Positions 606 to 39,061 of a stretch of 64,000 bases of DNA are shown here, in pieces (position 1 is the first letter of the stretch; every line of letters begins with the position of its first letter). This stretch comes from an uncultured Candidatus Saccharibacteria bacterium (lineage in GTDB: Bacteria; Patescibacteriota; Saccharimonadia; Saccharimonadales; SZUA-47). Location of the stretch: NCBI GenBank assembly GCA_964536485.1, contig CAZHXX010000007.1, forward strand, positions 1,937 through 65,936. The letters run 5' to 3'. The notes under the pieces are model-generated. The model did no database searches and had not been told where the DNA came from. It was given only the letters and a program-made list of their open reading frames with translations. A program made the position numbers and the translations under genes.

Positions 606-850
606 TGAAGAAGAAAGATATTAGTATTATTGTGACGGTTGCGCTTGGAAGTGCAGTGTTTTCTTTTGTATTATCTGGACTCTTATTTTCTTCTAAGAAA
701 GACCGCTCCCAGACCGTTGAAGTTGTAGAGCAAATTAGCACTGAATTTAAGACTCCAGATCCTACCTACTTCAATCGAGAATCAAAGAATCCATCACAAA
801 ATATTCAGATTGGGACAGACCAGAATAGCAATCCATTTGGATCACAATAG
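605..850 (+). CDS. small membrane-anchored protein of the pilus operon
   Basis: 81-aa ORF with one N-terminal TM helix (IIVTVALGSAVFSFVLSGLLF). ATGA-type overlap with the upstream stop. Confidence 0.5.
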   Translation: MKKKDISIIVTVALGSAVFSFVLSGLLFSSKKDRSQTVEVVEQISTEFKTPDPTYFNRESKNPSQNIQIGTDQNSNPFGSQ

Positions 851-863
851 GGGCATAGAAACT

Positions 864-2645
864 ATGAGCGTGTTGTCCGTTGCTACCCAAAAACTTGTCG
901 AAAAAGCGATTGTTGAGCAGGGTGTATTGACACCTGAAAAGATGCTTGAAGCACGAGGACGAGCTGAGCAAAAAAATAGTCCACTTTTTAGCACAATGGT
1001 TACGGATGGGTATATTACCAATGAAGTTTTGACGAAGATGATTGCTAGTGTGACAAAGATGCCATACGTTAATTTGTCGAGCGCGATCATTGATCCAAAA
1101 CTACTATCTACGTTGCCAAAAGACATTGCCGAGCGTTATATGGCGGTTCCTCTGGGAGAAATGAACAACCGCCTTGTTGTTGCGATGCTTGATGCTGACA
1201 ATGTCCAGGCAGTAGACTTTCTGAGCAATAAAATAGGACGGCCACTAAAGGTTTATGCTGCCAGTGAAGAGGGGATTCGCAACGTCTTACAGCAATACAA
1301 GGATGATATATCACAGGACGTGACTAGTGCACTTGATTCGCAAATAAAAGAGCAACTGGCCGAAGACGAAGCGAAGGAGCAACGTGATGTAAAGGTTATC
1401 AAGAATGACTCTCCGATTAGTAAGGCACTCTCGTCTATTTTGGAGTATGCGGCGGCTAATAAAGCGAGTGATATTCATATTGAGCCTCTTGAAAAGATGT
1501 TGAAAATTCGTGCCCGCGTTGATGGCGTGTTACGAGAAGTTATGCAACTTCCTAAATCAACCGAGGCACCACTGGTTTCTCGTATAAAGATTTTGTCTAA
1601 CCTGAAGATAGATGAACATCGTGTGCCACAGGATGGTCAGTTTTCGATTGCACTTGGAAAGTCGGCAATAGATTTACGTATTGCTATCTCTCCGGTGGTA
1701 TGGGGGGAGCAAGTGGTTATTCGTTTGCTAGATAAGTCCGGGACCTCTCTTATGCTGGAAGACATGGGTTATGTGGGAAGAGCACTGCACACTATCCGCC
1801 GTGGATTAAAGCGACCAAACGGTATGATACTGACGTCTGGGCCGACCGGGTCAGGAAAATCTACCTCGCTTTACGCACTCCTGCAAGAGATTAAGAGCGA
1901 TGAAATAAACATCGTTACTCTTGAAGATCCTGTTGAGTATAAGATGGCCGGTATTAACCAGATTCAGGTTAACGCTGAAGTTGGGCTAACATTTGCCTCT
2001 GGTTTGCGTTCTATTTTGCGCCAGGACCCTGACGTCGTGATGGTGGGAGAAATCCGAGACAAAGAAACAGCGACGCTGGCGGTACAGGCTGCGCTTACGG
2101 GACACTTAGTGTTTAGCACCCTTCACACCAATTCGGCGGCAGGTATCTTGCCTCGTCTGCTTGATATGGGTATTGAGCCATTTTTGATTGCGAGTACAGT
2201 ACACACGGTCATTGGGCAGCGACTGGTGCGACGAAATATTGAGGAGCGCGAGGCGTACAAATCATCACAGGCAGAAACTGACGCGATTCGACAGACGCTG
2301 GGGGCTCATTTACCGAAGACACAAGAAGAGATAGCGACAATTTCTCGGGAACTTGGCTATTCTAACTTGCCTCTTGCTAATCAAAACGCTTATACTTTGT
2401 TTAAGGGAAAGAGTAAACCCGAAAACCCAGAAGGCTACAAGGGTCGAATGGGGCTGTACGAGGTCTTTGAAATTTCAGATGCAATTCAATCGCTTATTCT
2501 AAAACGGGCGACAAGCTCTGAGATTCAGAAGGTGGCACAAGCCGAAGGCATGATAACCATGCGAGAAGATGGCTACCTGAAAGCCTTAAGTGGGATGACA
2601 ACCTTAGCAGAGATTAACAGAGTCGCTGCCGAGGGTGCAGTATAA
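864..2645 (+). CDS. pilB: type IV pilus assembly ATPase PilB (GspE family)
   Basis: Walker A GPTGSGKST, Asp box VMVGEIRD, His box HLVFSTLHTNSA, and an N-terminal GspE_N-like domain. ATG at 864 preferred over 810, which overlaps the upstream ORF. Confidence 0.9.
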   Translation: MSVLSVATQKLVEKAIVEQGVLTPEKMLEARGRAEQKNSPLFSTMVTDGYITNEVLTKMIASVTKMPYVNLSSAIIDPKLLSTLPKDIAERYMAVPLGEMNNRLVVAMLDADNVQAVDFLSNKIGRPLKVYAASEEGIRNVLQQYKDDISQDVTSALDSQIKEQLAEDEAKEQRDVKVIKNDSPISKALSSILEYAAANKASDIHIEPLEKMLKIRARVDGVLREVMQLPKSTEAPLVSRIKILSNLKIDEHRVPQDGQFSIALGKSAIDLRIAISPVVWGEQVVIRLLDKSGTSLMLEDMGYVGRALHTIRRGLKRPNGMILTSGPTGSGKSTSLYALLQEIKSDEINIVTLEDPVEYKMAGINQIQVNAEVGLTFASGLRSILRQDPDVVMVGEIRDKETATLAVQAALTGHLVFSTLHTNSAAGILPRLLDMGIEPFLIASTVHTVIGQRLVRRNIEEREAYKSSQAETDAIRQTLGAHLPKTQEEIATISRELGYSNLPLANQNAYTLFKGKSKPENPEGYKGRMGLYEVFEISDAIQSLILKRATSSEIQKVAQAEGMITMREDGYLKALSGMTTLAEINRVAAEGAV

Positions 2646-2662
2646 ATAAATAGGAGACACGG

Positions 2663-3739
2663 GTGGCAACAGCAGGATCACAACCAAGAATTGAACTTCT
2701 ACTTGAAGAAGTCGTGAAGAAAAAAGCATCAGATTTGCATTTGCAAATTGGGTTGCCTCCGATGTTGCGTGTAGACGGTTCTTTGCGCCCGGTGTCTGGC
2801 GCAGATGTTTTAACCGAAGAAGCACTGGAATCTTTAGTGTTTGCGATTCTTGATGATGACCAAAAGCAAATACTGCTAAAGGACAAAGAGTTTGATTTTA
2901 GCTTTGCGTTTGGCGACCTGGGAAGATTCCGTGTGAATGCGTTCCATGAGCGAGGTAATTTGGCTGCAGCTCTGCGTCTTATACCTAACGAAATCCTCAC
3001 CCCAGAACAACTTGGCTTGCCAGAAATTGTAAAGAAATTCGCCGAGTATCCGAGAGGTCTCGTGCTAGTAACGGGACCGACAGGTTCTGGTAAGTCTACA
3101 ACGCTTGCCTCGCTGGTAGACAAAATAAATACCGAGAAGGCAACGCACATTATTACCATTGAAGACCCAATCGAGTTTACTCATAAATCAAAGAAATCGG
3201 TGCTTGTACAACGAGAAGTTCACTACGATACGTTCTCTTTTTCGGCGGCGCTTCGTAGTTCGCTACGCCAAGATCCAGATGTTGTCTTGATTGGAGAAAT
3301 GCGAGATCTTGAGACGATAGCGAGCGCGATAACGATTGCTGAAACAGGTCACCTTGTTTTTGCAACCCTTCACACCAACTCAGCGGCGCAAAGTATTGAC
3401 CGTATGATTGACGTTTTTCCTCCCCATCAACAGCCACAAATTCGTTCCCAGCTGAGCAATATATTGATGGCTATCTGTTCGCAACGCCTTATTCCTTCAA
3501 TTGGTGGCGGACGAGTAGTGGCTGCAGAAGTGCTAGTGGCTACTCCGGCTGTACGAAACATAATTCGCGAAGGCAAGACGCATCAGCTTGATGCGGTGAT
3601 TCAGACCGGTGCGGATTATGGCATGCAGTCTATGGATAAAACGCTTGTGTCACTTATACACTCTGGCACTATTAGCTATGACGAAGCTCGTAACTACGCA
3701 GTTGATATTGAAGAGCTCGATAGATTGATGAGAGGATAA
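2663..3739 (+). CDS. pilT: twitching-motility retraction ATPase PilT
   Basis: GTG start. ASDLHLQIGLPPMLRVDG, GPTGSGKSTT, LIGEMRD and HLVFATLHTNSA motifs. PilT-like length of 358 aa. Confidence 0.9.
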   Translation: MATAGSQPRIELLLEEVVKKKASDLHLQIGLPPMLRVDGSLRPVSGADVLTEEALESLVFAILDDDQKQILLKDKEFDFSFAFGDLGRFRVNAFHERGNLAAALRLIPNEILTPEQLGLPEIVKKFAEYPRGLVLVTGPTGSGKSTTLASLVDKINTEKATHIITIEDPIEFTHKSKKSVLVQREVHYDTFSFSAALRSSLRQDPDVVLIGEMRDLETIASAITIAETGHLVFATLHTNSAAQSIDRMIDVFPPHQQPQIRSQLSNILMAICSQRLIPSIGGGRVVAAEVLVATPAVRNIIREGKTHQLDAVIQTGADYGMQSMDKTLVSLIHSGTISYDEARNYAVDIEELDRLMRG

Positions 3740-3744
3740 CGACA

Positions 3745-4959
3745 ATGGTGATGTTTTCTTATGTAGCACGAGACCCAGCGACAGGGAAGAAGGTCGAAGG
3801 TGCTTTGCAGGCAGAAGACGAAAAGACCGTAGCCAAGATATTGAAGCAACAAGGATATGCACTTTTAGAGGCATCCGTACAGGAAGATACTAACCCACTG
3901 GCTGCGCTTATGGGACGAGTGAAAGGAAAAGATAAGGTCATCTTTTCGCGTCAGCTCTCAACACTCATAAATGCAGGACTTCCTCTCGTGCAAAGTTTGC
4001 GCTCAGTATTGAGTCAGACAACAAACAAGCGTATGCAAAGTATTTTAACTGATGTGATTGGAAGCGTAGAGGGGGGGAAGTCTTTTTCCGATAGTCTTGC
4101 TGAGCATCCCAAGGTGTTTGACCAAATCTTCGTGAGCCTTGTTTCTGCGGGAGAAGCTTCCGGAACGCTTGATGTTGCACTTGAGCGAATCGCGAATCAG
4201 CAAGAAAAAGATAGTGAGCTTGCTGGAAAAGTAAGAGGAGCGATGATATATCCAGTTATTGTGGTGCTGGTGATGGTTGCGGTAGTAACCTTTATGCTCG
4301 TCAGTGTGCTACCTCAAGTAGAAGAGTTGTATAGTGGTATACCGGGCGCAAGATTACCGTTTGTTACTCGTGCATTGCTCGCGCTCTCTGCTTTTATGGT
4401 GTCTTTCTGGTGGGTTATTTTAATAGTTGTTGGTGTACTCGTTTTTGCCACAACAAAATACGCGCGTACTGCAGGGGGCAAGCAAATAATCGATACGTTG
4501 AAGTTGAAGCTGTGGCCGATTGGCCCGCTCTTTACAAAAATGTATATGGCACGTTTCTCGCGGACAGGCACAACGCTTGTTTCGAGCGGGGTTCCGCTTA
4601 TACAGGTGTTGGATATTACTGCCAAAGCTATTAATAACGTCCATGTTGAAGCATCTATTCACCGCGCAACCGAAAAAGTTAAAGGCGGGCGGGCGCTCTC
4701 TGAATCGTTGATGGGCGACCCATACTTTTTAGACCTCGTACCAAATATGTTAAAGATTGGTGAGGATTCTGGTGCTCTTGAAAAGATGATGGAGAAGACA
4801 GCTGACTACTTTGAAAAAGAAGTTGATAATCAGATAAAGTCTATCTCTACTATCATTGAACCGGTACTCATGGTTATCTTGGGGGTCGTGGCTATTACGA
4901 TTGTAAGCGCGATTCTGTTGCCAATTTACGGGCTGGTTGGGCAGAACTTAGGAAAATAG
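3745..4959 (+). CDS. pilC: type IV pilus platform protein PilC (GspF family)
   Basis: 404 aa with a duplicated T2SS-F-like domain and three TM segments. Position after pilB/pilT. Confidence 0.9.
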   Translation: MVMFSYVARDPATGKKVEGALQAEDEKTVAKILKQQGYALLEASVQEDTNPLAALMGRVKGKDKVIFSRQLSTLINAGLPLVQSLRSVLSQTTNKRMQSILTDVIGSVEGGKSFSDSLAEHPKVFDQIFVSLVSAGEASGTLDVALERIANQQEKDSELAGKVRGAMIYPVIVVLVMVAVVTFMLVSVLPQVEELYSGIPGARLPFVTRALLALSAFMVSFWWVILIVVGVLVFATTKYARTAGGKQIIDTLKLKLWPIGPLFTKMYMARFSRTGTTLVSSGVPLIQVLDITAKAINNVHVEASIHRATEKVKGGRALSESLMGDPYFLDLVPNMLKIGEDSGALEKMMEKTADYFEKEVDNQIKSISTIIEPVLMVILGVVAITIVSAILLPIYGLVGQNLGK

Positions 4960-5059
4960 TATCTAGAAAGAGTTTGTCATAACGCTTGCGCTTTTGAAAA
5001 AATAAGCTTAAGATGTAGTGGTAAAAACACTAACATTCGCACGCATTAAGGGGGAAAGA

Positions 5060-5560
5060 ATGTCTAGAATAAAAACAATATTAAAAAAAAGTTCGCAAGG
5101 GTTCACGATTATTGAAGTAATGATCGTGCTTGCTATTGCTGGACTGATATTGGGAGTCGTGCTTGTCGCCATTCCACAATTGCAAAAAAACCAGCGAAAC
5201 GAGTCGCGTAAAAGCGTCCTCGCGCGTATTTCAGCAGAAGTCGATAACTACATTGGCAACAATGAAGGTGTGGTGCCAACTGCTGGTACGAACGCTACAA
5301 CAGGGTTCACGACAGGATTTAAGACTCGTTACATAAATACAGCTACTGGTAAGACCTTTGACAAGCCAGGTGGTGGTGCATACGTTTATGAAGATTTTAG
5401 TGCTAGCGCAACTTCTATCGTAAAAGACCACATTGCCTATAAGGCAGGTGGAAAGTGCGTTGGTGAGTTACCAAGTGGTACTGGTGCAAGCGCAACACGA
5501 AACTTTGCGATTGCAGTTGGTCTTGAAGGTGGGTCTTCCTACTGCGTTGACAATGAATAA
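5060..5560 (+). CDS. major type IV pilin (prepilin)
   Basis: Class III signal ...SSQG|FTIIEVMIVLAIAGLILGVVL with Glu5. GGGGGAAAGA RBS lies before the ATG at 5060. A strong terminator follows the gene. Confidence 0.8.
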   Translation: MSRIKTILKKSSQGFTIIEVMIVLAIAGLILGVVLVAIPQLQKNQRNESRKSVLARISAEVDNYIGNNEGVVPTAGTNATTGFTTGFKTRYINTATGKTFDKPGGGAYVYEDFSASATSIVKDHIAYKAGGKCVGELPSGTGASATRNFAIAVGLEGGSSYCVDNE

Positions 5561-5584
5561 CTAGCATATTTCTTAAGAAATTTT

Positions 5585-5635
5585 AAGGAGCCTGTTGATT
5601 CGTCATGAAACACTAGGCTCCTTTTGCTTTGTTTG
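5585..5635 (+). terminator. intrinsic terminator after the pilin gene
   Basis: AAGGAGCCT (5585-5593) pairs with AGGCTCCTT (5615-5623), followed by a T-rich tract. Confidence 0.55.
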
Positions 5636-5649
5636 TTACCATTAGAGTA

Positions 5650-6456
5650 ATGGAAGCGCTATTCACTGGATATCTGTTTTTTCTTGGGCTTATTTTTGGG
5701 AGTTTTGCCTTAGTTCTTGCAGACAGAATGAAACAAAAGCGCGACTGGGTGAGGGGGCGATCTGCCTGCGAGTTTTGCAAACACACCTTATCTATGCACG
5801 ATTTAGTACCTCTGTTTAGCTGGCTGTCAACAGGGGGAAAGTGTCGTTATTGTAAAAAAAAGCTCTCCTTTTCTTATCCTTTAACAGAGCTAGGGCTCGG
5901 TCTTGCATTTGCGGGGAGTTATGTATGGTGGCCTCGTGATTTTGATGGAGCGGGACGCTTGTTGTTCGCTACGTGGTTGTTAGCGCTGGTTGTCGCTACG
6001 GCATTATTCGTCTATGATCTTCGTTGGTATTTGCTGCCAAATAAACTGGTGTATCCGCTTATCGCTATCGCCAGCTTTCACCGTGCAGTAGTAATTGCTT
6101 CTAACGGAGTAGGTATGTCAAAAGATATGCTTGCTGTAGGGCTTTCTGTGCTGGTCGGTGCGGGAGTTTTTTATGTGTTGCATGAATATTCTAAAGGCAA
6201 ATGGATTGGAGATGGTGACGTACGGCTTGGTGTGGCGATGGGTCTGTTTTTGCCTGGTCCGTTTGAAGCTTGGTTTGCTATCTGTGTTGCCTCAATAATT
6301 GGGATTATTATTGCGTTGCCAAAGCTGATTCAATCGCGTAAAAATCTCAAGATGAAACTGCCTTTTGGTCCTCTGCTTTTGGTGGGACTATACGTTGCTT
6401 ATTTATTCGCCGAACCCGTGCTTCACTGGTACACTACGACATTTCTCTATCTCTAG
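5650..6456 (+). CDS. pilD: prepilin peptidase / N-methyltransferase PilD (A24 family)
   Basis: CEFC...CRYC zinc motif, GDGDVRLG active-site Asp region, multi-TM. ATG at 5650 preferred because the TTG at 5629 lies inside the terminator. Confidence 0.85.
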   Translation: MEALFTGYLFFLGLIFGSFALVLADRMKQKRDWVRGRSACEFCKHTLSMHDLVPLFSWLSTGGKCRYCKKKLSFSYPLTELGLGLAFAGSYVWWPRDFDGAGRLLFATWLLALVVATALFVYDLRWYLLPNKLVYPLIAIASFHRAVVIASNGVGMSKDMLAVGLSVLVGAGVFYVLHEYSKGKWIGDGDVRLGVAMGLFLPGPFEAWFAICVASIIGIIIALPKLIQSRKNLKMKLPFGPLLLVGLYVAYLFAEPVLHWYTTTFLYL

Positions 6457-6498
6457 AAATACAGAGGTTAAAAATAATGCTTATGGTATACTGAGTCT

Positions 6499-7341
6499 AT
6501 GAAAGTGAGTGGTGGTTATACAATCATCGAGGTTATGGTTGTGATAGGAATTTCTGCTGTCATATTTTTCTCTGCTATGACTGCTATTGGCGGTCGTCAA
6601 GAGTCAGTACAATTTTCTCAGGCTGTCCGTGAATTTGACGCAAAGATGAGAGATATTATGAATGACGTCACGACTGGCTACTTTCCTACAAACAGCACTA
6701 TTACTTGCACTCTTTTAGCGGGCACTCCCCAGATTAGCGTTGATAATGATGCGAAGTTGGGTACTAATAACAACTGTATCTTTATAGGGAAGGCAATACA
6801 ATTTTTGCCAGATGGCGTAGGTGAGAGAATGGACATCTATTCTTTGGCTGGATTGCGCTATCAAGATAACGACCAAACACCAACTACTACGATCGCAAAA
6901 GCTCAGCCAGTTCCGTTGGCTCGTCCTGGTGATGATCCAAATTTTAAGGATGCGACCGAGAGCTACCAGCTCCTCTATGGCTTACGAGTAAAAAAGGTAA
7001 TAAAGCCTCTTGGCACAACTCCTCCTGAGTACGGAAGCGTTGGAATTATTAGTAATTTTGGTGCAGCGGGAGTGTCTGAGGCACAGAGCCTGCAGATTGG
7101 GGGCATAATTGGTTCGCAGACTGGGGCAAATGAATCGACGACGCTTCGTATTCTTGATGCGCTGACTGACGACCCGGCACGATCTCGTAATGACGGCTAT
7201 ATAGACAAAAATACTGCCGAAGGACTTGTTATCTGCCTTGAAAATCAAACAGGTAAAAAGGCATCCGTAACTTTTGGTGCTAAGGGTTCTTCAACAACAA
7301 AGCTAGACATAGATTCATACGATAGGAAGTGCGACATATGA
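6499..7341 (+). CDS. minor pilin-like protein
   Basis: Prepilin signal VSGG|YTIIEVMVVIGISAVIFF. Confidence 0.7.
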   Translation: MKVSGGYTIIEVMVVIGISAVIFFSAMTAIGGRQESVQFSQAVREFDAKMRDIMNDVTTGYFPTNSTITCTLLAGTPQISVDNDAKLGTNNNCIFIGKAIQFLPDGVGERMDIYSLAGLRYQDNDQTPTTTIAKAQPVPLARPGDDPNFKDATESYQLLYGLRVKKVIKPLGTTPPEYGSVGIISNFGAAGVSEAQSLQIGGIIGSQTGANESTTLRILDALTDDPARSRNDGYIDKNTAEGLVICLENQTGKKASVTFGAKGSSTTKLDIDSYDRKCDI

Positions 7342-7802
7342 GAAAGTTACAGCGTGGCGACACTATTATTGAGGTAATGCTCGCGATGTCAATTATTGGT
7401 ATTGTGCTTGGTGCTGCATTTGGCATAGCAAACCGTAGCGTGAGCGTGGGACAAGATGCGCAGGAAAGAACTGAGGCGTTAAAGCTTGCGGAAACACAGC
7501 TTGAAATTTTTAAAACACAGTTTGTGAAGTCTAGTATTGTGCGTGCTCGTAATGAACTGCAACCTTTTTGCTTTGATGCGACTACGACGCCACCTACGCT
7601 TCATGATTCTACTGACGATCAGTGCGATAAGGTGGACGCAACAAGTGCAGACGGTATCTACTCGATAAAGATTCTTCCGCCATCACGGTTTGGCGCCACT
7701 GGAAGTTACACAATAGAGGTTCATTGGGAACGACTCGGTGCTACCGCTACAGAAAATGCAGAGAATAAACTGATCTTGTACTACAAGCCGGGGACTGTAT
7801 GA
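7329..7802 (+). CDS. minor pilin-like protein
   Basis: Prepilin-like signal LQRG|DTIIEVMLAMSIIGIVLG, with an unusual Asp at +1. Confidence 0.65.
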   Translation: MRHMRKLQRGDTIIEVMLAMSIIGIVLGAAFGIANRSVSVGQDAQERTEALKLAETQLEIFKTQFVKSSIVRARNELQPFCFDATTTPPTLHDSTDDQCDKVDATSADGIYSIKILPPSRFGATGSYTIEVHWERLGATATENAENKLILYYKPGTV

Positions 7803-8455
7803 GCAGGCAACATAAGAACGGGTTTACTATTATTGAGCTGATGATAGCGACAACAGTATTTTCGCTTGTTTTGATGGTGTGTCTCGGCGGGATTATGCAG
7901 ATAACAAAAATGTATTACCGTGCGGTGACGCAAACCAAAACAAGAGAAGCTACTCGTTCAGTGGTAGATGAAATTGCTGAAGCGATTCGTTTTTCGAACC
8001 AAGATATCATACTTGCCCCAGGAGTCGCCGGCCCGCAAATTGCTGTGGGTAATACGACGACAAGCTATATCTGTATCGGTCAGCGACGATATACGTATGC
8101 TATAGACAGGCAAGTGAAAAGCTCGCCACAGGCAAATACGAAACAACAGCGACATGCGCTTTGGCTTGACCAGCCAACAACATGTAACGGGGCAAGTGAC
8201 CTGACCCAGGTATCCCCGAGCGCGGACGGTAAAAGCTTGTTGGGCGAGAACATGCGTCTCTACGAATTCAGCGTGAAATTGGTTGACCCAGTTGAACGTA
8301 TTTATGAAATACGTGTTGGAGTGGCATATGGAGATGAAGATTTGTTGCGGGTAAAAACAACTGATGCACGTCAGCTGACCTGCGAAGGAGCTTTTGTCGG
8401 AGTAGAGTTCTGCGCCACGACAAACTTCTTGGTAACGGTGCAAAAGAGGCTATAA
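7799..8455 (+). CDS. minor pilin-like protein
   Basis: Prepilin signal HKNG|FTIIELMIATTVFSLVL. 4-nt overlap with the upstream gene. Confidence 0.7.
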   Translation: MSRQHKNGFTIIELMIATTVFSLVLMVCLGGIMQITKMYYRAVTQTKTREATRSVVDEIAEAIRFSNQDIILAPGVAGPQIAVGNTTTSYICIGQRRYTYAIDRQVKSSPQANTKQQRHALWLDQPTTCNGASDLTQVSPSADGKSLLGENMRLYEFSVKLVDPVERIYEIRVGVAYGDEDLLRVKTTDARQLTCEGAFVGVEFCATTNFLVTVQKRL

Positions 8456-8456
8456 T

Positions 8457-9476
8457 ATGCTTATGACAAAACGTACCCACACGCAAGAACAAGGCTTCAT
8501 CGCTATTGTTGTGGCTGCTCTTATCATGGTTATTTTGTCGCTCATTACGATTGGCTTTACACGTATGATGCAACGAGAACAGCAACAAGCGCTAGACAGG
8601 CAACTGACACGACAGGCACTTTATGCTGCGGAGTCGGGTATTAATGATGTCTATGAAGGCTTGCGCCAAGGCACACTAACAGAGATAGAAAAAACAGATT
8701 GTGATGTTGGAGACCTCCCAAATGATGGGGTTATTAGTGATAGCACCAATATTGCTTACACTTGCGCTTTGTATGACAAAACACCAGCTCAGCTTGCGTA
8801 CAGCATTAGCACGTCCGATTCTAAGATATCTCCTCTGATAACAGAGAGTGGTCGCAACTTCTCGACGATAACTATTCAGTGGGGGCAAGAAAAAGGACTC
8901 AACAATGTCGCAACGCTTCCTGATTGTGGCTCGGCAGGGATTTTCCCGCGTTCTCGTGCAGGGAATGTGCCACTTTTGAAGGTAGATTTTACTAACACGT
9001 CGACACTGAGCAGAGATAGCCTTATTAACTCTACTGACTATCTCTATGTTTCTCCCTGCAAAGGAGCTGGTACTACTACTTATCGCTACGTTGGGGGAGC
9101 AAAGGGGACGGTCGTAGGGGTGAGTTGCAACGCAAGCGCAACGCTTCCATGTTCGCTGACTATTAATGGGCTCGCATCAAATCGTTACGTTGCCCGAATA
9201 CACAGTGTCTATGACAGCTCGCAGGTAGTCATCGATGGTTCTGAGCAGTTGGGCGGGGGTGCCACAGGCCCTGTAGAGTTTGCTCAATCACAGACAAGCA
9301 TTGACGTGACCGCTCGGGCAACCGATGTCGTGAGAAGATTGCGCGTGTCTATCCCTCTTGGCCAGCCAGATAACCCACCTGAGTCGGTGTTTCAGTCTTT
9401 TGACGGCGTATGTAAGCTTTTGTCTATAGACACAGTAAGCTCTCCAGCACGCATTACCGACGACTGTACGTACTAA
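8457..9476 (+). CDS. PilX-like minor pilin / pilus tip-associated protein
   Basis: N-terminus QEQGFIAIVVAALIMVILSLITIGF...ALYAAESG resembles a PilX_N-type hydrophobic segment, with no Glu5. Confidence 0.55.
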   Translation: MLMTKRTHTQEQGFIAIVVAALIMVILSLITIGFTRMMQREQQQALDRQLTRQALYAAESGINDVYEGLRQGTLTEIEKTDCDVGDLPNDGVISDSTNIAYTCALYDKTPAQLAYSISTSDSKISPLITESGRNFSTITIQWGQEKGLNNVATLPDCGSAGIFPRSRAGNVPLLKVDFTNTSTLSRDSLINSTDYLYVSPCKGAGTTTYRYVGGAKGTVVGVSCNASATLPCSLTINGLASNRYVARIHSVYDSSQVVIDGSEQLGGGATGPVEFAQSQTSIDVTARATDVVRRLRVSIPLGQPDNPPESVFQSFDGVCKLLSIDTVSSPARITDDCTY

Positions 9477-9485: not shown

Positions 9486-10418
9486 CTACTGCGAGGTATC
9501 GGGCTCTTCGTGTGAGCGATGAAATTTTTGGTGTACCGCTTTGAGATGTGGGTCGGTAACGTGCGTATATATTTGGGTTGTCGATATGTTGCTATGGCCA
9601 AGCATTGCTTGCACCGAACGTAAGTCTGCGCCGTTCATAAGTAAATCTGTGGCAAAGCTATGGCGAAGGGTGTGCGGACTGGCATGTTTTGTGATCCCGG
9701 CAAGGAGGGCGTAGCGCGCAACCAGGCGTTGGACACTGCGCGCGGTGAGGCGGTAGTAATTGCCGGAAACTGAAACTTGCTTCGTGCCACTATAACGAAT
9801 GAAGAGAGGGGCACTATTGTCTTGCCGTTTATCGAGGTACTGCTGGACCCACCAGGCCGCAGCGTCGCTTATAAAGATAGGCCTGTCTTTTTGCCCCTTA
9901 CCGCGCACCATGAATTCTTTACGTTTGAGGTTGATGTGGTCTTTGTTCAAGCCCACAAGCTCTGATACACGTAAGCCACTAGAGAAGAGAAGCTCTAAGA
10001 TCGCGCGGTCGCGAAGCCCCTGCAAGGTCTCTAGCTTTGGTCCTGCAAAGAGTCGCTCAAGCTCTTCTTGGTTGAGGAAAGTTACTTGTTTGCGGGTGGC
10101 TTTAGCAAGCTCTATTTTGTCTGCAGAGATAACTTGCATGTCACGTTTGGTACAGAATTTTACAAAACTACGGAGTGCTATGAGGTGATAGTTGAGGGTA
10201 TTTTTTTGTAGCTCATCCGAAGTATTTGTCCCAAGCCGGTTGAGCCAGAGACGCCATTTTCTGATAAGCTCGGCGTCTATGTCAGTGACTTGTATATCAC
10301 CTGCAAAGTCTATGAGACGAGTGAGGTAGTGGTCGTAGTTCTGGATGGTTTTTTGGGAACGACCTTGTTCTATTTCGAGATATTCTAGAAAATCTGTTTT
10401 TGTTTTTGAAAAGAGCAT
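9486..10418 (-). CDS. tyrosine recombinase XerC/XerD family
   Basis: C-terminal catalytic region HTLRHSFATDLLMNGADLRSVQAMLGHSNISTTQIYTHV plus an N-terminal SAM-like core-binding domain. Confidence 0.85.
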   Translation of the reverse strand: MLFSKTKTDFLEYLEIEQGRSQKTIQNYDHYLTRLIDFAGDIQVTDIDAELIRKWRLWLNRLGTNTSDELQKNTLNYHLIALRSFVKFCTKRDMQVISADKIELAKATRKQVTFLNQEELERLFAGPKLETLQGLRDRAILELLFSSGLRVSELVGLNKDHINLKRKEFMVRGKGQKDRPIFISDAAAWWVQQYLDKRQDNSAPLFIRYSGTKQVSVSGNYYRLTARSVQRLVARYALLAGITKHASPHTLRHSFATDLLMNGADLRSVQAMLGHSNISTTQIYTHVTDPHLKAVHQKFHRSHEEPDTSQ

Positions 10419-11916: not shown

Positions 11917-12980
11917 TGAAGAAGAAACTGCAACAATTACGAGAGAAACGACTGGCAAAAAAAGAGCTTGCTGAGTCGGGCGTGATTCCGCGCATAACAA
12001 ACGAGAATGTGGCTGAGCACCGTGAGGAAATATTGTCTGGTGCACGCAAGTACATTTATCCCCTGCAACACTCTAAGCACCGCATTATACTGCTCACTAC
12101 TTCTCTTGTTATTGCGACAATTTTAATTTTTACTTCTAGTACGGTGTATTTTCTCTATCGCAAGCAGTCGTCTTCTAGCTTTATGTACCAAGTGACTAAG
12201 GTGCTTCCTTTTCCGGTAGCGAGAACTGGCAATACTTTTGTTGCGTACGAAAACTATCTCTTTGAGCTACGTCACTACATCCACTATTACGAAACTCAGC
12301 AGAAGTTAAGCTTTGAGACAGAGGCGGGGCAGGACCAACTGTCTGCTTATAAAAAGCGTGCACTCGATGATGTGGTGAACATGGCATATACAAAAATGAT
12401 TGCCAAGGAACGCGGAGTAAGTGTGACTGAGCAAGAGATTGATGAGCAAATACGAATTGCTAAAGAGCAAAAAAGACTTGGGAGCAACGAGGCGATTTTT
12501 GAAGATGTGTTGCGAGAGTATTGGGACTGGACGATAACCGATTTTCGACGAAGTTTACGCGATGAATTGCTGATTCAAAAAGTGACTCGCTCTCTTGATG
12601 AGGAGGCTGACAAGCGAGCAAGCGAAGCGCTTGCAAAGCTTGCTGGAGGCGAAGACTTTGGTGCAGTTGCAAAGCAATATTCTGATGAGGAATCGACGAG
12701 GGATGCGGGGGGTGAATTCGGTGAAGTAGACCCATCTAACCGCAACGTTTCGCAACAAACTGTTGATACCTTGTTGCGACTGAACGTGGGGCAATACTCG
12801 GATGTAAAAGTGATCCCTTATGAGACAGGATATGCACTCGAGATTGTGAAGAATCTAGAGAAGAAGGGGAGTGGGGCACGAGGTGCTCGTATCATTTTCC
12901 GATTGAAGGATTTGGAAGCTACGTTGAATGATCGTAAGGATAAGCAACCTTATCGGATGTATATTTCTTTGCCTAATTGA
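11916..12980 (+). CDS. peptidyl-prolyl isomerase, SurA-N/parvulin (PpiC) type, membrane anchored
   Basis: GTG start, one TM helix, C-terminal parvulin-like FGAVAKQYSDEESTRDAGGEFGEV...GYALEIV. Confidence 0.65.
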   Translation: MKKKLQQLREKRLAKKELAESGVIPRITNENVAEHREEILSGARKYIYPLQHSKHRIILLTTSLVIATILIFTSSTVYFLYRKQSSSSFMYQVTKVLPFPVARTGNTFVAYENYLFELRHYIHYYETQQKLSFETEAGQDQLSAYKKRALDDVVNMAYTKMIAKERGVSVTEQEIDEQIRIAKEQKRLGSNEAIFEDVLREYWDWTITDFRRSLRDELLIQKVTRSLDEEADKRASEALAKLAGGEDFGAVAKQYSDEESTRDAGGEFGEVDPSNRNVSQQTVDTLLRLNVGQYSDVKVIPYETGYALEIVKNLEKKGSGARGARIIFRLKDLEATLNDRKDKQPYRMYISLPN

Positions 12981-13030
12981 TAAATTAGAGATATTTACGT
13001 AGCTTTTAAAAGCTATTGGTAAAAACTTCT

Positions 13031-13572
13031 TCTCGCTTCATTTTCGGCAGTGCTTATCAGCACTTTGCACGAGTTGCAGTGGGCGATGCCTGCCCCCACC
13101 CAGCCATACTTTTGTTTGCAGGTGCAAAAGTATGCAAAAACCCCGCAGCATGCAAGAAAAGCACGATTGGCTTCTTTACAGAAATGAAGCGTTCCTTGCG
13201 GAACGCTCTAAAGAGCGGTCAGAATAGTTACTGAAAGAGAGTATTCTGACAAGTCCTCGGAAATGACTCCCTTCATTTCTGCAAAGAAGCCATCGGTTTT
13301 CTTGCGGTGCTGGAGAGCTACAGAGCTACTGTAGCCTAACCAGCCTTTAACAATAAGACTGATGCCATACAGAGAAATGACAACGAATCATTTCCGAGGA
13401 CTAGTCAAAAGTCTTCTTATTTAATAACTACTTTTGACCGCTTGTGTTCCGCAAGGAACGCTGTCATTTCTCTGTATGGCAATCATGTTCTTATTGTAGG
13501 CTGCGGGGCGTTTTGGGTACTTTTGGACCTGTAGCTAAAAGTACCGCTGGGTTAAAGGGCAGCAAAGCCCTT
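13031..13572 (+). repeat. structured repeat locus R1: inverted dimer of two repeat units (13031-13325 forward, 13338-13572 reverse)
   Basis: Central hairpin GCTACAG-agcta-CTGTAGC at 13317-13337. Each arm folds into its own long branched hairpin. Homologous to loci at 17.6, 32.3, 34.2, 37.7 and 38.8 kb. Confidence 0.85.
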
Positions 13573-13690
13573 TTTCTTGATGAAGCTGACAACAGCTTTT
13601 CACGGGGTCTTGTAATTAACACCTTAGGATGGTACTATTATTCGAGTTTCAAGATGTAGTTTCTGTACTATATCTCGCAACAATAAACGC

Positions 13691-17518: not shown

Positions 17519-17612
17519 CGGGCTTTTTCCCTATGACTACTCTCATCTCGTAGCTTCTACGGGCTTTTCTTGTACGCATCCACCTCGTTTTTAATTGCAA
17601 AAACCTAAAAAA

Positions 17613-18142
17613 GGGCTTTGCTGCCCTTTGACCCTGCGGTACTTTTAGCTTCAGGTCCAAAAGTACCCAAAACGCCCCGCACCCAGGATAAAAAACACAA
17701 CTCATGCCAGATACCAGTATCTTCCGCGCTGTGAGGACGACAAGCGCCCAAAAGTAGTTATCTAAAAGAAGACTTTTGGGTTAAGCTCATTGCTCGACTC
17801 GTAAGACACTGATTGCCATGAATCAGTTTTTTAGAGGGTGTGTAGCTACAGTAGCCACATCAGCACCGCAAGAAAACCGATGGCTTCTTTACAGAAATGA
17901 AGAGAATCATTTCCGAGGACTTGTCAGAATACTCTCTTTCAGTAACTATTCTGACCGCTCTTTAGAGCGTTCCGCAAGGAACGCTTCATTTCTGTAAAGA
18001 AGCCAATCGTGCTTTTCTTGCATGCTGCAGGGTTTTTGCTTACTTTTGCACCTGGAGGTAAAAGTAAGGCTGGGTGTGGGCAGGCATCGCCCACTGCAAC
18101 TCGTGCAAAGTGCTGAAAGCACTGCCGAAAATGAGGTGAGAA
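17613..18142 (-). repeat. structured repeat locus R2: inverted dimer, reverse complement of R1
   Basis: 17860-18142 is the near-identical reverse complement of 13031-13325. 17613-17690 is the reverse complement of 13500-13572. Confidence 0.85.
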
Positions 18143-18249
18143 GCGTACTCAATTCTTGTAGGCTGTGCATGTGTCGCTCACTTGCTCTAGGGCATTAACA
18201 ATCAAGAATAATTATTGAAAAAAACGTAAATTATAGTATAATAATTTTA

Positions 18250-25735: not shown

Positions 25736-26548
25736 ATGGATGATTATTTGAAAGAACTTGAGATTGCGAAGCGGCTGGCGAAGGACGCGGGCGTAATTAT
25801 GAACAAATATTTCAGTAGTGGTGCAGACGGTGCACAGATAAAGAATGATAAAACCATCGTTACAAAGGCTGATACTGAAATAAACACGCATGTTATTGCG
25901 GTGTTGGCGACCGAGACACCAAGCTATAGCGTTTGGGGCGAAGAAGAGAAATCAATCAAGCAGGATGTGCCATACACATGGGTGTGTGACCCGGTTGATG
26001 GCACGATGCCGTTTGCTAAGGGGCTACCTATATCTACCTTCTCGGTTGCCTTAGTAGATTCGGAAGGAGTGAGCGTGCTTGGTGTGGTGTATGACCCATT
26101 CACGGACAAGCTGTATGAAGCAGTCCGGGGTAGTGGCGCTTTTATGAATGGCATGCCAATTCGTGTCTCAGATAATGATACGCTCGATGGCGCTTACATT
26201 GACGAAGAACTGTGGTTTAACAATGAGGAGCAGGTAACTTTTGATACCCCCAAAGATGCGCTAAATAAATTGGGTGCGAAAGTAACGACTCAGTGTTCTG
26301 CTGTAATCATGGGATGCATGGTTGCGAGCGGAGCATACGAAGCGATGTTATTTGGACAGGGTAAACCTGAGGATATTGCTGCGCTATCTGTCATAGTGAC
26401 CGAGGCGGGCGGAAAGGTGACGGACCTGTTTGGAAATGAACAAAGGTATGACACGAATATTAGAGGAGCTGTAGTTTCCAACGACTACTTGCACGAAAAG
26501 CTTGTAGAGCTTACGTCAAAAATGAACTACACCAGCAAATACCTCTAA
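25736..26548 (+). CDS. inositol monophosphatase family protein (SuhB-like)
   Basis: WVCDPVDGT metal-binding motif and EE...KSI region, 270 aa. The last 8 codons come from junction repeat A. Confidence 0.8.
   Translation: MDDYLKELEIAKRLAKDAGVIMNKYFSSGADGAQIKNDKTIVTKADTEINTHVIAVLATETPSYSVWGEEEKSIKQDVPYTWVCDPVDGTMPFAKGLPISTFSVALVDSEGVSVLGVVYDPFTDKLYEAVRGSGAFMNGMPIRVSDNDTLDGAYIDEELWFNNEEQVTFDTPKDALNKLGAKVTTQCSAVIMGCMVASGAYEAMLFGQGKPEDIAALSVIVTEAGGKVTDLFGNEQRYDTNIRGAVVSNDYLHEKLVELTSKMNYTSKYL
26517..26544 (+). repeat. cassette-junction direct repeat, copy A
   Basis: AAAATGAACTACACCAGCAAATACCT matches the consensus AAAATGAACNNCACCAGCAAAWAYCT. Confidence 0.7.
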
Positions 26549-26602
26549 ACCCGCATTCTTCTCATGCTTGCTAGTAATAGCTTATGATGGTATTTTCAAG
26601 AG

Positions 26603-28816: not shown

Positions 28817-28847
28817 TTAATAATTCGCCAAGGTAATGTAGTAGATA

Positions 28848-28882
28848 CTCACCTCCAAAATGAACCACACCAGCAAATATCT
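28848..28882 (+). repeat. cassette-junction direct repeat, copy C
   Basis: CTCACCTCCAAAATGAACCACACCAGCAAATATCT. Confidence 0.7.
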
Positions 28883-28984
28883 TTAACTCTGCCAAAACTA
28901 AATAACAAAGAATTACAGATGAAAAGGTAAAAAATTATGAGCGTATTGTCTTGACTACGAATAAAATAAGCTAGAATTAATGCG

Positions 28985-29860: not shown

Positions 29861-30409
29861 ATGAATGCAGTATTTCTAGACCGAGATGGAACGATTAACA
29901 TTGGTATACCGAGAATCTCGAGAGTTGATAGTCCTGAAAAGGTTGAATTACTCCCGACGGTTATTGAAGCGCTTAGTCTTTTAGCGACTTTGGACTATAA
30001 AGTGTTTTTAGTGACGAATCAGGCCGGCATCGCAGAAGGTAAGATAACAGTAGAAGAATTTGAAAAGATAAACGAGCGAACCCTTGAGCTCATTAGACCA
30101 AGTGGTATAGATATAACTGAGACATACTATTGCCCGCACGGTGAACAAGACGCTTGTGAGTGTAAAAAGCCAAAACCTAAGATGCTCTTTGATGCTGCTC
30201 AAAAGTATGACTTAGACTTAGAAAATTCATTTATGATAGGAGATAGAATTTCAGACATAGACACAGGAATTAATGCTGGGACGAAGACAATCCTAGTGTT
30301 GTCTGGTGAAATAGTTGAGGCTCCGCAGGCAACTTATACAGCAAGTAATTTGCTTAAAGCAATTCAGTTCATAGCTGTAAGCAAAAACTATAACTCACCA
30401 AAAAAATGA
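29861..30409 (+). CDS. HAD-IIIA phosphatase, GmhB/histidinol-phosphatase-like
   Basis: VFLDRDGTIN motif I, VTNQAG, zinc-loop CPHGEQDACECKKPKP, GDRISD. Confidence 0.7.
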   Translation: MNAVFLDRDGTINIGIPRISRVDSPEKVELLPTVIEALSLLATLDYKVFLVTNQAGIAEGKITVEEFEKINERTLELIRPSGIDITETYYCPHGEQDACECKKPKPKMLFDAAQKYDLDLENSFMIGDRISDIDTGINAGTKTILVLSGEIVEAPQATYTASNLLKAIQFIAVSKNYNSPKK

Positions 30410-30428
30410 ACTCCACCAGCAAATACCT
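30394..30428 (+). repeat. cassette-junction direct repeat, copy D
   Basis: CTCACCAAAAAAATGAACTCCACCAGCAAATACCT. It overlaps the stop codon of 29861-30409. Confidence 0.7.
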
Positions 30429-30471
30429 CAAAAATTCAAAAGATTTAAAAACATCGTGCTACAACCCTGAA

Positions 30472-31791: not shown

Positions 31792-32257
31792 ACAGACTTG
31801 AAACTCGACTCCTCGGTGTGGCGCAACACTTTTACATTGCTGTGAGGAGTCGATACATGCAGTAGAGCACTTGCGAAGTGGTGCAGCATAGAGCGGGGTA
31901 ATGGAAAGGTATTTTCTCCAAAGAAATTACGCCTAAGTCAATTCAATCGCGGAGATATACAATAATATCATGGGATATATTGCCATAATTACTATCGCAA
32001 ACTTCATCGTTGGTAAAGGTGAACTACTGTTGAAGTTCAAGAGTAGTTTATCTTTACGCTTGACCGCCTCTGTTAGCTTTACAAGCTTTCTCGGGCTTGA
32101 CCTATGTCCTGTCTCAGCTACTATAATGTGGATCCCGCTTCTCCGTCCACACGTACTATAAAGCTATAGTAGTGGGTTGTTGTTACCCTCAACAGTATCT
32201 TTATTATAGCAAATTTAGAATAAAAAGCTATAGCTTACTAGAATGTATCAAGTCTGT
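31792..32257 (-). ncRNA. candidate RT-associated non-coding RNA / long structured 5' leader
   Basis: No ORF on the RT strand. Bounded by a 10-nt inverted repeat at 31792-31801 and 32248-32257. Contains a 9-bp stem (31806-31814 with 31844-31852) and an 11-bp hairpin at 32022-32048. An extended -10 TGCTATAAT reads on the minus strand at 32211-32203. Confidence 0.35.
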
Positions 32258-32290: not shown

Positions 32291-32536
32291 TCAGCATGTA
32301 GCCTCCAGCATAAAGCAAGAAAACCGATGCCTATTACTCAAAATGCAGTGAATCATTTCCGAGGACATGTCAAAAGTCTTCTTATTCAGTAACTACTTTT
32401 GACCGCTTGCCGTCCCGCAGGAACACTACATTTTGAGTAATTGGCAGTCGCAGTTCTTCTTGCCAGCTGGCGGGGCGTTTTGGGTACTTTTGGACCTGTA
32501 GCTAAAAGTACCGCTGGGTATGGGCAGGCAAAGCCC
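32291..32536 (-). repeat. structured repeat locus R3: single unit, same strand as the RT
   Basis: Homologous to 13338-13572. It has the head hairpin GTACTTTT...AAAAGTAC, the GTCAAAAGT/ACTTTTGAC apical stem and the TCATTTCCGAGGAC motif. Confidence 0.8.
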
Positions 32537-32538
32537 AT

Positions 32539-38297: not shown

Positions 38298-38304
38298 CTA
38301 AGAT

Positions 38305-39045: not shown

Positions 39046-39061
39046 AGCACAAAGGTGTTGA

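Follow-up and report, generated by a model that had tools for sequence, protein, structure and literature searches.

REPs are species-specific, imperfect palindromes of ~20–40 nt that are headed by GTAG or GTGG. REP, BIME and REPIN sequences are mobilised by RAYT transposases of the Y1 HUH type, and SMAG repeats are likewise GTAG-headed. This picture of REP, REPIN, RAYT and SMAG reportedly goes back to work by Nunvar in 2010, Bertels and Rainey in 2011, Messing in 2012 and Rocco in 2010. Bacterial MITEs (Correia/NEMIS, ERIC, RUP) are non-autonomous intergenic elements of a few hundred base pairs that can seed rearrangements. The RNAs of mobile elements (HEARO, or omega RNA, of IscB; IS605-orfB; retron; DRT2) are large, structured and non-coding, may be multicopy and horizontally spread and, to our knowledge, always lie beside their protein gene. 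Finally, the orphan Rfam family TwoAYGGAY was rated "probably RNA" by Weinberg 2010 (PMC2864571) and is placed by Rfam in the Csr/Rsm-binding clan (PMC5753348; PMC4333381); a function as a CsrA sponge is a hypothesis only (PMC4333381).

The window, a 64-kb stretch of Saccharibacteria DNA analysed at its full length, contains nine copies of a repeat that shares features with each of these systems. Like REP, BIME and REPIN sequences, the units are intergenic, high-copy and hairpin-forming, occur in either orientation and often as inverted pairs, and keep their hairpins paired through compensatory change; target-site duplications are seen in neither. In addition, most Saccharibacteria-type units carry a GTAG-containing TGTAGCC box at the 5′ end. 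In contrast to REPs, whose length they exceed six- to tenfold, the units measure ~250 nt and include a 180-nt rod, their module is invariant across phyla, the Bacteroidota copies lack the GTAG box, and no RAYT gene is present among the 71 of 79 listed window ORFs that were scanned. The units share with MITEs the general properties given above and inverted pairs with terminal inverted repeats, but differ in that no target-site duplications were found at the candidate ends, no partner insertion sequence was seen among the ORFs near the module at 117 loci, the interior is structurally constrained and single units have no terminal inverted repeats. The likeness to mobile-element RNAs lies in size, structure and non-coding nature and in a capacity for multiple copies and horizontal spread, whereas neither a linked protein nor an Rfam match was found for the units, and the one adjacent reverse transcriptase has a separate non-coding RNA; retron and DRT2 non-coding RNAs are conserved immediately upstream of, and co-oriented with, their reverse transcriptase, and the units are not. 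With TwoAYGGAY, the units share a long closing stem (P1) around an apical multi-hairpin region, a multicopy intergenic setting and, in the gammaproteobacterial members, a 3′ flanking module that lies outside the Rfam definition. Unlike TwoAYGGAY, the window units lack the two AYGGAY terminal loops and fall below the 43-bit gathering threshold.

Location and anatomy of the nine units

Saccharibacteria genomes are tiny and repeat-poor, and the units form the dominant repeat class of the window, with nine copies inside 26 kb that are all intergenic and lie on both strands. A covariance-model search, using a model made from 21 related units, returns nine full-length matches of 140–242 bits in the 64 kb and nothing else. 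These matches lie where an earlier note on this DNA had placed nine units at six loci (three inverted pairs and three singles). In the first inverted pair, U1 (13076–13325, (−) strand, 225.2 bits; strands here are the better-folding "forward" orientation) comprises a rod hairpin, a 3′ module and a GC hairpin. Beyond this GC hairpin lies an extra hairpin segment (GCAAAGTGCTGATAAGCACTGCC..., 13031–13075, (−) strand), which is seen only in U1, U4 and U5, with counterparts at 18098–18145 and 37755–37804 (alignment A1). The mate of U1, U2 (13327–13575, (+) strand, 241.6 bits), ends in GGGCAGCAAAGCCC followed by TTTTT. The second pair is formed by U3 (17608–17853, (−) strand, 139.7 bits), a degenerate copy in which the module is intact and the core motif is gone, and U4 (17847–18097, (+) strand, 232.3 bits). 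In the third pair, the left half is U5 (37805–38047, (−) strand, 228.6 bits), downstream of a 538-aa ORF, and the right half is U6 (38050–38299, (+) strand, 224.4 bits), which abuts the 3′ end of nrdR. The single units are U7 (32294–32541, (+) strand, 226.8 bits), which adjoins a DRT2-like reverse transcriptase island, U8 (34153–34398, (−) strand, 227.4 bits), whose basal stem is partly decayed, and U9 (38797–39046, (−) strand, 217.5 bits), which has a different terminal hairpin, GCGACT/AGTCGC. Every unit contains stop codons in all six frames, which rules out coding potential: the units are non-coding.

All nine units contain an invariant hairpin pattern, TACTTTTNNNTNCAGNNNNAAAAGTANNCAAAA, with nine occurrences in the window compared to 0.00 expected from shuffles. 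On the strand read in the earlier note, the pattern takes the form TACTTTT-N12-AAAAGTA-NN-CAAAA, as at 13107–13139; the other eight module hairpins are found at 13511–13543, 17640–17672, 18034–18066, 32478–32510, 34184–34216, 37836–37868, 38235–38267 and 38828–38860. Near-identical copies 25 kb apart had also been described, and residues 13105–13322 (U1) and 38826–39043 (U9) are indeed 98% identical over 218 nt. Similarly, 13057–13312 (U1) and 17861–18116 (U4) are 96% complementary, and U4 and U9, which are 20.7 kb apart, are 97% complementary over 209 nt (repeat I2). The stem sequences quoted at the outset are likewise found in the DNA.

The anatomy is described here on the strand with more support, which runs opposite to the original orientation. 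At the 5′ end is a short box, usually TGTAGCC, that is present in most Saccharibacteria-type units and not in Bacteroidota copies, and at which copy-to-copy similarity ends. The rod that follows is an imperfect hairpin of ~180 nt with a closing pair of motifs, CAGC/GCUG. In the Saccharibacteria-type rod, the motifs GAGUCAUU, AGUAACUA and ACCGCU are conserved and unpaired, and in the window units the apical loop reads ...AGUAACUA.... The module, ~45 nt in length, consists of GCnGCGG, UUUUG and an 11–12-bp hairpin, UACUUUU...AAAAGUA, and is succeeded by a GC hairpin of variable sequence, for a whole unit of ~250 nt. Often, two units in inverted orientation form the complete element, with one module at each outer end. 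GUUCC/GGAAC, initially taken as a hairpin, is better read as part of a long-range helix that switches between UUCC:GGAA and UGCC:GGCA (10 versus 10 sequences at one pair in alignment A5); in U6, this helix is the UGCC:GGCA variant. A triple helix (U·A-U) in which the UUUUG tract would pair with the hairpin was set aside on linker length, by reasoning rather than computation.

Base pairing and the strand that folds

The nine repeats are real, strongly base-paired units. In an RNAduplex matrix, duplexes between a 5′ arm and its own 3′ arm have energies of −47 to −66 kcal/mol (U2, −65.7; U7, −55.2; U5, −51.4), compared to −21 to −42 kcal/mol with arms of other lineages. The exceptions to this own-arm preference are the degenerate U3, which has a weak own-arm duplex, and U8. 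In alignment A5 of the 21 related units, 92.3% of cells are paired, relative to 71.1% in shuffled alignments and 37–44% with slid partners, and both sides have changed at 40 of the 59 pairs. The covariation score of this alignment is 0.533, versus 0.152 when shuffled and ~0.09 when slid, and its helices 1–4 comprise 33 pairs that are each 82–97% paired. Single-unit folds give z values of −7.7 and −8.3, with U1 on the (−) strand at −8.3. The stems vary while loops and bulges stay constant, and the placement of bulges, internal loops and G·U pairs is conserved. Compensatory changes are also observed within the otherwise invariant module hairpin, and its flanking pairs show both conservation and covariation across 121–128 modules. 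The proposal of a structured, non-coding repeat family under pairing constraint is supported.

The distribution of G·U pairs leans moderately to the strand opposite the one first read. In the module hairpin, 17 G·U pairs are counted on this opposite strand and two on the other; alignment A5 contains 54 G·U versus 15 A·C. The pairs predicted from both strands speak less clearly, with 23 G·U versus 15 A·C. On these counts, which are moderate evidence, the original orientation is probably that of the non-folding strand. The minimum free energy is also better on the forward strand in 88 of 108 elements, but this advantage is gone once composition is controlled, and the comparison was dropped because shuffled sequences show the same offset.

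Spread of the module and its link to TwoAYGGAY

This repeat family is very widespread, intergenic and bacterial. A 33-nt hairpin pattern within the ~45-nt module is unchanged at more than 117 species-representative loci, mostly from Bacteroidota and Saccharibacteria, and such invariance across phyla does not fit a local or lineage-restricted family. Further variant copies are present inside the same 8-kb loci, and many module loci sit at contig ends, as assembly-breaking repeats. Just one element lies inside an ORF. Orientation is unbiased with respect to neighbouring genes (65:55 and 50:46) and has a weak relation to GC skew (64:37). A phage or plasmid origin was discarded: the hairpin pattern has no exact match in IMG/VR viral contigs, and a unit pair has no blastn match in PLSDB or INPHARED.

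The window units have no Rfam match at the gathering threshold (whole window) or at E ≤ 10 (12980–13690). When the window and 38 loci were searched at gathering and lax thresholds, the only matches were tRNAs, RNase P, one group II intron, Flavo-1 and TwoAYGGAY at one locus. The suggestion that the repeat is no known ncRNA, insertion sequence or REP thus holds as far as Rfam and the classical features of insertion sequences are concerned, neither of which is seen. It does not hold entirely: gammaproteobacterial TwoAYGGAY RNAs (RF01731) carry the module on their 3′ side, which gives the family some connection to known motifs. The one matching locus, L020 from a Vibrio MAG, scores 47.8 bits against RF01731 (gathering score 43) on the favoured strand and is the sole locus to pass. 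The TwoAYGGAY seed members of Psychromonas ingrahamii carry UUUUG, the UACUUUU...AAAAGUA hairpin and a GC hairpin at their 3′ side, and the 3′ module is common to the window, L020, the Bacteroidota loci L011 and L014, and P. ingrahamii (alignment A6; supplementary alignment of PMC2864571). The RF01731 model ends before the module. The five human-gut TwoAYGGAY sequences that were read do not contain the module, and the window units do not contain AYGGAY loops. A literature search found no prior description beyond TwoAYGGAY, and the family is apparently undescribed to date.

Readings of the element

The observed anatomy, pairing constraint, cross-phylum spread and exchange of segments between copies may best be accommodated by a family of non-coding, non-autonomous intergenic repeats of ~250 nt per unit that is REP/REPIN-like in logic, with each unit a structured repeat acting in single-stranded form. 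The probability of this reading is put at roughly 0.4. In the proposed mechanism, the element would act single-stranded, the module would serve as a handle for a trans-acting factor that propagates or processes the element, and the rods would stay paired because the single-stranded state needs pairing. As no conserved promoter was found at the units, any RNA-level effect would stem from read-through from neighbouring genes, which may place a stable structure at transcript ends. Against a REP-like reading, the module sequence is conserved across phyla, we know of no cognate enzyme for the element, the candidate ends showed neither target-site duplications nor sharp insertion boundaries, and the strand evidence is moderate. 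If the reading is true, one 45-nt module would link hundreds of unannotated, strongly structured elements from Bacteroidota, from Saccharibacteria and from some Proteobacteria, join part of TwoAYGGAY to them, give a starting point in the search for the factor by which these elements are bound or moved, and explain a class of assembly-breaking repeats in carrier genomes. Cultured carriers exist (Daejeonella rubra DSM 24536, Saccharicrinis aurantiacus HQYD1 and Psychromonas ingrahamii 37), and questions on the element are therefore directly testable.

A further point against the REP-like reading is that conserved bulges and loops separate the covarying stems, which is more suggestive of an RNA that binds a ligand or protein than of a simple hairpin repeat. 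A broader, more tentative proposal is that rod-plus-module elements constitute an unrecognised, cross-phylum class of functional single-stranded nucleic acid, of which the gammaproteobacterial TwoAYGGAY RNAs would be one branch, with the ~45-nt handle bound by a conserved factor and the rods as payload (e.g., protein-sponge sites), or else reflect a new hairpin-dependent mobility without a linked gene. All-against-all clustering of 433 ORFs at most 2.5 kb from module hits at 117 loci gave no protein family in more than seven loci. No RAYT, transposase or reverse transcriptase was seen to recur near the 117 loci, with domain searches that covered three of the ten representatives of the largest clusters. 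Within the window, where 79 ORFs are listed, a Pfam search of 71 ORFs of at least 70 aa found no Y1/HUH (RAYT) or DDE transposase.

The main rival, which is possible but somewhat doubtful, holds that the units are stand-alone genes for trans-acting structured sRNAs, with TwoAYGGAY as a member of the same superfamily. The variable rod would form a protein- or RNA-binding scaffold that differs by lineage, with CsrA-type AYGGAY loops in Gammaproteobacteria, and the conserved module a shared 3′ handle for stability or processing. Strong structural covariation combined with conserved unpaired motifs speaks for such genes, and the G·U bias favours one strand, on which the module is 3′-terminal. GNRA tetraloops are also more frequent on this favoured strand (14/103 versus 7/106 on the other), although GNRA/UNCG enrichment is weak. 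Maintenance of units at orthologous sites and the ties to TwoAYGGAY, namely the same-strand L020 score, the module at the 3′ side of the Psychromonas copies and the standing of that family as probable RNA in a Csr/Rsm-binding clan, point in the same direction. The signals expected for transcription do not. No conserved promoter is observed on either side of the units; neither in Saccharibacteria nor in Bacteroidota does one precede the 5′ box, and the Bacteroidota promoter motif TAnnTTTG is absent upstream of the 5′ end. In inverted pairs, the 5′ ends abut or overlap, leaving no room for promoters, and the 3′ hairpin has no general U-tract terminator. High copy number, assembly breaks at the elements, several degenerate or chimeric copies, and window units with neither AYGGAY loops nor an Rfam match at E ≤ 10 are further points against sRNA genes. 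Two candidate signals were rejected: sigma-70-like boxes upstream of single Saccharibacteria units, in flanks read by eye, have inconsistent positions, and the GC hairpin as a terminator is followed by a U-run after U2, U3 and U7 only, with no T-run in the family flanks.

Less probable by far is that the inverted pair is a cut-and-paste MITE, with the module as terminal inverted repeat, a DDE transposase elsewhere and the single units as broken halves. The elements are multicopy and intergenic, in either orientation, and inverted pairs of 490–580 bp with a module at both ends are found in two phyla: in the window (three), in Saccharibacteria relatives and in the Bacteroidota loci L011, L014 and L053. 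In addition, two inverted units at L078 enclose 900 bp of cargo, and the site orthologous to U9 in one relative (L122) is empty, although too diverged to fix the element ends. However, the L078 cargo has no Pfam match, and target-site duplications are absent from all 13 candidate end pairs examined, which represent 10 distinct inverted pairs. A sharp insertion boundary was not found either. Neither an autonomous copy nor a recurring transposase is seen at the 117 loci, nor a transposase in the 71 window ORFs scanned. A module at both ends is seen in the inverted pairs and not in single units or in tandem head-to-tail arrays, which exist at L096 and L092. The two halves of an inverted pair carry different rods, and these rods are under a pairing constraint with conserved loops that a DDE MITE would not need.

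Related strains bear on a further alternative, an improbable one, in which pairing is kept without selection: the arms of neutral, junk palindromes would be homogenised by hairpin-templated repair or gene conversion. Between these strains, modules and inner rods have been exchanged with both arms together, as cassettes, and one unit among the relatives (L121) is chimeric. These joint swaps, and the near-identical copies 25 kb apart, are what homogenisation would produce. They also qualify the compensatory stem changes first reported: the pairing is real, as the own-arm duplexes and alignment A5 indicate, but the strong covariation between copies within the genome partly reflects whole-segment exchange between lineages, not compensatory mutation step by step. 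Given the cassette-like swaps and the chimeric unit in the relatives, the earlier note goes too far in deriving selection for structure directly from covariation. Nevertheless, homogenisation does not fit the fixed bulges, internal loops and G·U positions, the loops that stay constant while stems change, or the conservation of the module across phyla, and the degenerate U3, U8 and the L121 chimera show that pairing decays when it is not maintained. In favour of the preferred, REP/REPIN-like reading, relatives with flanking genes of 76–85% nucleotide identity have units at orthologous intergenic sites, with the swaps, the chimera and the empty site described above. At L118 and L119, moreover, the order of genes agrees with an inversion between U4-like and U9-like copies, in line with units being sites of rearrangement. 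Against it, retention across such considerable divergence suggests that the units are not obviously mobile now.

Very improbable is a reading of the units as templates or partners of a DRT2-type reverse transcriptase, or as a SINE-like retroelement copied from the 3′ module: U7 does lie ~500 nt upstream of such a gene and the module is 3′-terminal on the favoured strand, but the favoured strand of U7 opposes the gene, the 117 loci show no recurring reverse transcriptase, A-tails and target-site duplications were not found, and the four homologue loci searched (L123–L126) are all unit-free. Only U7 is near a DRT2-type enzyme and the upstream region of the homologues is without a unit, and a unit–DRT2 link was rejected; the enzyme beside U7 appears unrelated to the units. 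This reverse transcriptase, of 439 aa, matches Drt2 with E = 3e-89 (NCBIfam) and 1e-102 (PADLOC), and it is preceded by a conserved non-coding region of its own, ~400 nt long, which is common to the L123 and L125 homologues.

Repeat units and their fold

The nine ~250-nt repeat units occupy six intergenic loci in the window. Three are inverted pairs, U1/U2 (13076-13325, minus; 13327-13575, plus), U3/U4 (17608-17853, minus; 17847-18097, plus) and U5/U6 (37805-38047, minus; 38050-38299, plus), and three are single units, U7 (32294-32541, plus), U8 (34153-34398, minus) and U9 (38797-39046, minus). All six loci described in the earlier note were recovered by repeat finding, and when the 64 kb were searched with a covariance model derived from 21 such units, exactly nine full-length matches (140-242 bits) and no others came back. 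The reported near-identity of two copies 25 kb apart was confirmed (13105-13322 and 38826-39043 share 98% identity), and the complement of 17861-18116 matches 13057-13312 at 96%. Every unit contains stop codons in all six frames.

Each unit combines a ~180-nt imperfect hairpin, the rod, with a ~45-nt conserved end piece, the module, which carries UUUUG and a UACUUUU...AAAAGUA hairpin and is followed on the outside by a GC hairpin. Nine matches to the invariant hairpin pattern lie in the window, where 0.00 were expected. Outside the GC hairpin of U1, U4 and U5 only, an extra ~45-nt hairpin segment (CATTTTCGGCAGTGCTT.TCAGCACTTTGCACG; 13031-13075, 18098-18145 and 37755-37804) suggests modular addition at the unit end.

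The stems quoted in the earlier note are present in the sequence, and its claim that they vary between copies yet remain complementary holds for all units except U3 and U8, the only two in which own-arm pairing has decayed. Calculated arm against arm, the duplex energy of a unit's own 5' and 3' arms is −47 to −66 kcal/mol, versus −21 to −42 kcal/mol with arms of other lineages (U1, U4 and U9 form one lineage; U2, U5, U6 and U7 each form their own). The consensus fold of 21 units, the nine of the window and 12 from related Saccharibacteria contigs, combines one long, irregular rod with a second hairpin apart from it. In this alignment, 92.3% of cells pair (71.1% when shuffled, 37-44% with slid partners), two-sided change is seen at 40 of 59 pairs, and the covariation score is 0.533, compared with 0.152 for shuffled and ~0.09 for slid partners. 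The GTTCC...GGAAC segment, previously taken as a local hairpin, fits better into a long-range helix, where it is paired with the GTCCTCGGAAATGA motif and where UUCC:GGAA and UGCC:GGCA are exchanged in step (at one pair, each form is seen in 10 sequences). On the strand favoured below, the conserved unpaired elements are a bulge (GAGUCAUU), an apical loop (AGUAACUA) and ACCGCU.

Strand of the fold

Although 88 of 108 elements fold better on the reverse complement of the orientation first proposed, this preference was discarded because shuffled sequences give the same offset and composition therefore explains it. Pair types are more informative. In 128 module hairpins, non-Watson-Crick pairs that are A·C on the proposed strand and G·U on the other occur 17 times, and the converse twice. 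The 21-unit alignment contains 54 G·U and 15 A·C pairs; the counts are 38 versus 26 when the fold is predicted on the other strand instead, and 23 versus 15 on pairs that the two predictions share. GNRA tetraloops are found in 14 of 103 cases on the favoured strand and in 7 of 106 on the other. Together, these counts lean moderately towards the strand opposite to the original orientation. The favoured strand agrees with that of TwoAYGGAY RNA and places the module at the 3' end.

The module and its relation to TwoAYGGAY RNA

An element in a Vibrio MAG (L020) is a TwoAYGGAY RNA on this same favoured strand (47.8 bits; threshold 43), and the Rfam model ends where the module starts. In a flank-containing alignment (Weinberg et al. 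2010), Psychromonas ingrahamii members continue into ...UUUUGGUUACUUUUCUUUUGCUGUUGAAAGAAAAGUAAC and then a GC hairpin, which is the same module. The module is absent from the five human-gut members examined. The window units lack AYGGAY loops and, like the Bacteroidota elements, have no match in Rfam 15. Module and rod can thus occur apart from each other. Of the known motifs TwoAYGGAY comes closest, sharing the module in L020 and P. ingrahamii, but its AYGGAY loops set it apart and it is not the family of the window units. Rfam places it in the Csr/Rsm-binding clan (PMC5753348), and a CsrA-sponge role has been proposed only (PMC4333381). No account of the module turned up in the literature searched. 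The claim of novelty survives as far as the missing Rfam match, but the family is not categorically new, since the module is shared with some TwoAYGGAY members and since the logic of the family, that of a structured, intergenic, multicopy, inverted-pair repeat, resembles REP/REPIN elements. In one P. ingrahamii copy (NC_008709.1/1237421-1237983; PMC2864571 supplement 99), ~50 nt of unrelated sequence splits the 3' arm of the module hairpin; repeated blocks (ACGCCGUCAGGGCGGAAGACCAAC...) also follow copies in this species.

Among the matches listed, the 33-nt hairpin pattern is unchanged in >117 species-representative genome loci: many in Bacteroidota (Daejeonella, Pedobacter, Saccharicrinis, Maribellus, Microscillaceae, Saprospiraceae), others in Saccharibacteria, three assigned to Oscillospiraceae, one each to Vibrio, Desulfuromonadales and Endomicrobia, and Gammaproteobacteria represented by two contigs of one MAG and another. 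This breadth, together with the invariance of the module, is surprising. Conservation extends beyond the specified bases to CCGCnGC after CAAAA and a C at loop position 9. Four pairs extending the hairpin covary freely (at one, TA 46, CG 40, GC 32), and a related contig, L122, has compensatory changes within the 'invariant' hairpin itself (UCCUUUUU/AAAAAGGA and AACUUUU/AAAAGUU). The downstream rod is long and of its own type in each lineage. Many matches lie at contig ends, and the covariance model found further variant copies inside the same 8-kb loci. A scan of 2.9 million viral contigs did not find the pattern, and blastn against plasmid and phage collections gave no hits.

Variation between relatives, context and interpretation

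In relatives' contigs with the same nrdR neighbourhood, the same intergenic sites are occupied. One site carries a different terminal hairpin and module from strain to strain; between L118 and L119, judged the same species by identical NrdR, both inner-rod arms are replaced together; and a unit at L121:345-624 is a chimera whose arms come from two lineages and no longer pair. The strain comparison proposed earlier yielded one empty site, that of U9 in L122. L118 and L119 differ in gene order as a ~20-kb inversion between two oppositely oriented copies would predict; U4 and U9 are copies of this kind, and in the window they are 97% complementary over 209 nt and 20.7 kb apart.

Pairs of inverted units that carry the module on each outer side also occur in Saccharibacteria relatives and in Bacteroidota (L011 4039-4608; L014 1074-1578; L053 752-1311). 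At L078 1290-2760, also Bacteroidota, two inverted units flank a 900-bp cargo that gave no Pfam hit. Tandem arrays are found in L092 and L096 (6200-7270 in the latter); in Saccharicrinis-type loci such arrays run head to tail with a 327-nt period. No protein family recurred near the module in >7 loci (domain searches covered 3 of 10 largest-cluster representatives). Orientation shows no bias relative to neighbouring genes and a weak one relative to GC skew. No conserved promoter was found upstream of the 5' box, nor a general U-tract after the terminal hairpin, and no target-site duplications flank the 13 candidate end pairs (10 distinct inverted pairs) inspected.

Fixed bulges and loops, covariation, strand-biased G·U pairs and retention at orthologous sites indicate that the single-stranded fold matters. 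High copy number, strictly intergenic placement in either orientation, inverted pairs and segment exchange, with no own promoter, linked gene or target-site duplication, are more in keeping with a REP/REPIN-like structured repeat than with either a DDE-type MITE or a conventional sRNA gene. We therefore tentatively favour, at a probability of roughly 0.4, a structured, non-autonomous repeat whose action and maintenance take place in the single-stranded state. The module would be its recognition handle, and RNA-level effects, if any, would arise through read-through transcripts; the propagating enzyme and the transcript are steps that we infer. A stand-alone sRNA is a serious rival, if a doubtful one given the missing promoter, the high copy number, the inverted pairs and the segment exchange. 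An ordinary MITE is improbable, with neither target-site duplication nor linked gene; no transposase was found among the 71 ORFs scanned in the window. Neutral homogenisation of palindromes, set beside the signs that the fold matters, is judged less probable still.

A link to the DRT2-type reverse transcriptase near U7 is very improbable and was rejected: no repeat unit occurs at the four homologue loci compared, so the proximity is treated as coincidental. Homologues with 35-59% identity come mostly from metagenomic contigs, one of them labelled Patescibacteria. This 439-aa protein (30472-31791, minus; NCBIfam Drt2 E = 3.3e-89, below the curated cutoff; PADLOC Drt2 E = 1.1e-102) is encoded in a low-GC island. 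Its ~400-nt upstream region is conserved with those of the L123 and L125 homologues, which are 51-58% identical to it, and, judged from this conservation, is a candidate DRT2 template non-coding RNA (within 30472-32200, minus) with no Rfam match. The surrounding variable region includes, besides a deaminase and an ART-like ORF, a family of 61-nt direct repeats (26509-26569, 28847-28907 and 30393-30453; 62-70% identical) with a conserved mini-ORF, ATG AAC .. ACC AGC AAA TAY CT (MN(H/Y/S)TSKYL). Two ORFs, one of 118 aa (35730-36086, plus) and a conserved one of 538 aa (36096-37712, plus), gave no Pfam hit up to E = 1e-4; both keep their synteny in every relative inspected and are ~85% identical in nucleotides to L118. 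The regions 810-9476, 9486-10418 (minus) and 54188-57160 hold a type IV pilus cluster (PilB/PilT-like ATPases, PilC, prepilin peptidase and pilins), a Xer-like tyrosine recombinase and a TraG/VirD4-like ATPase.
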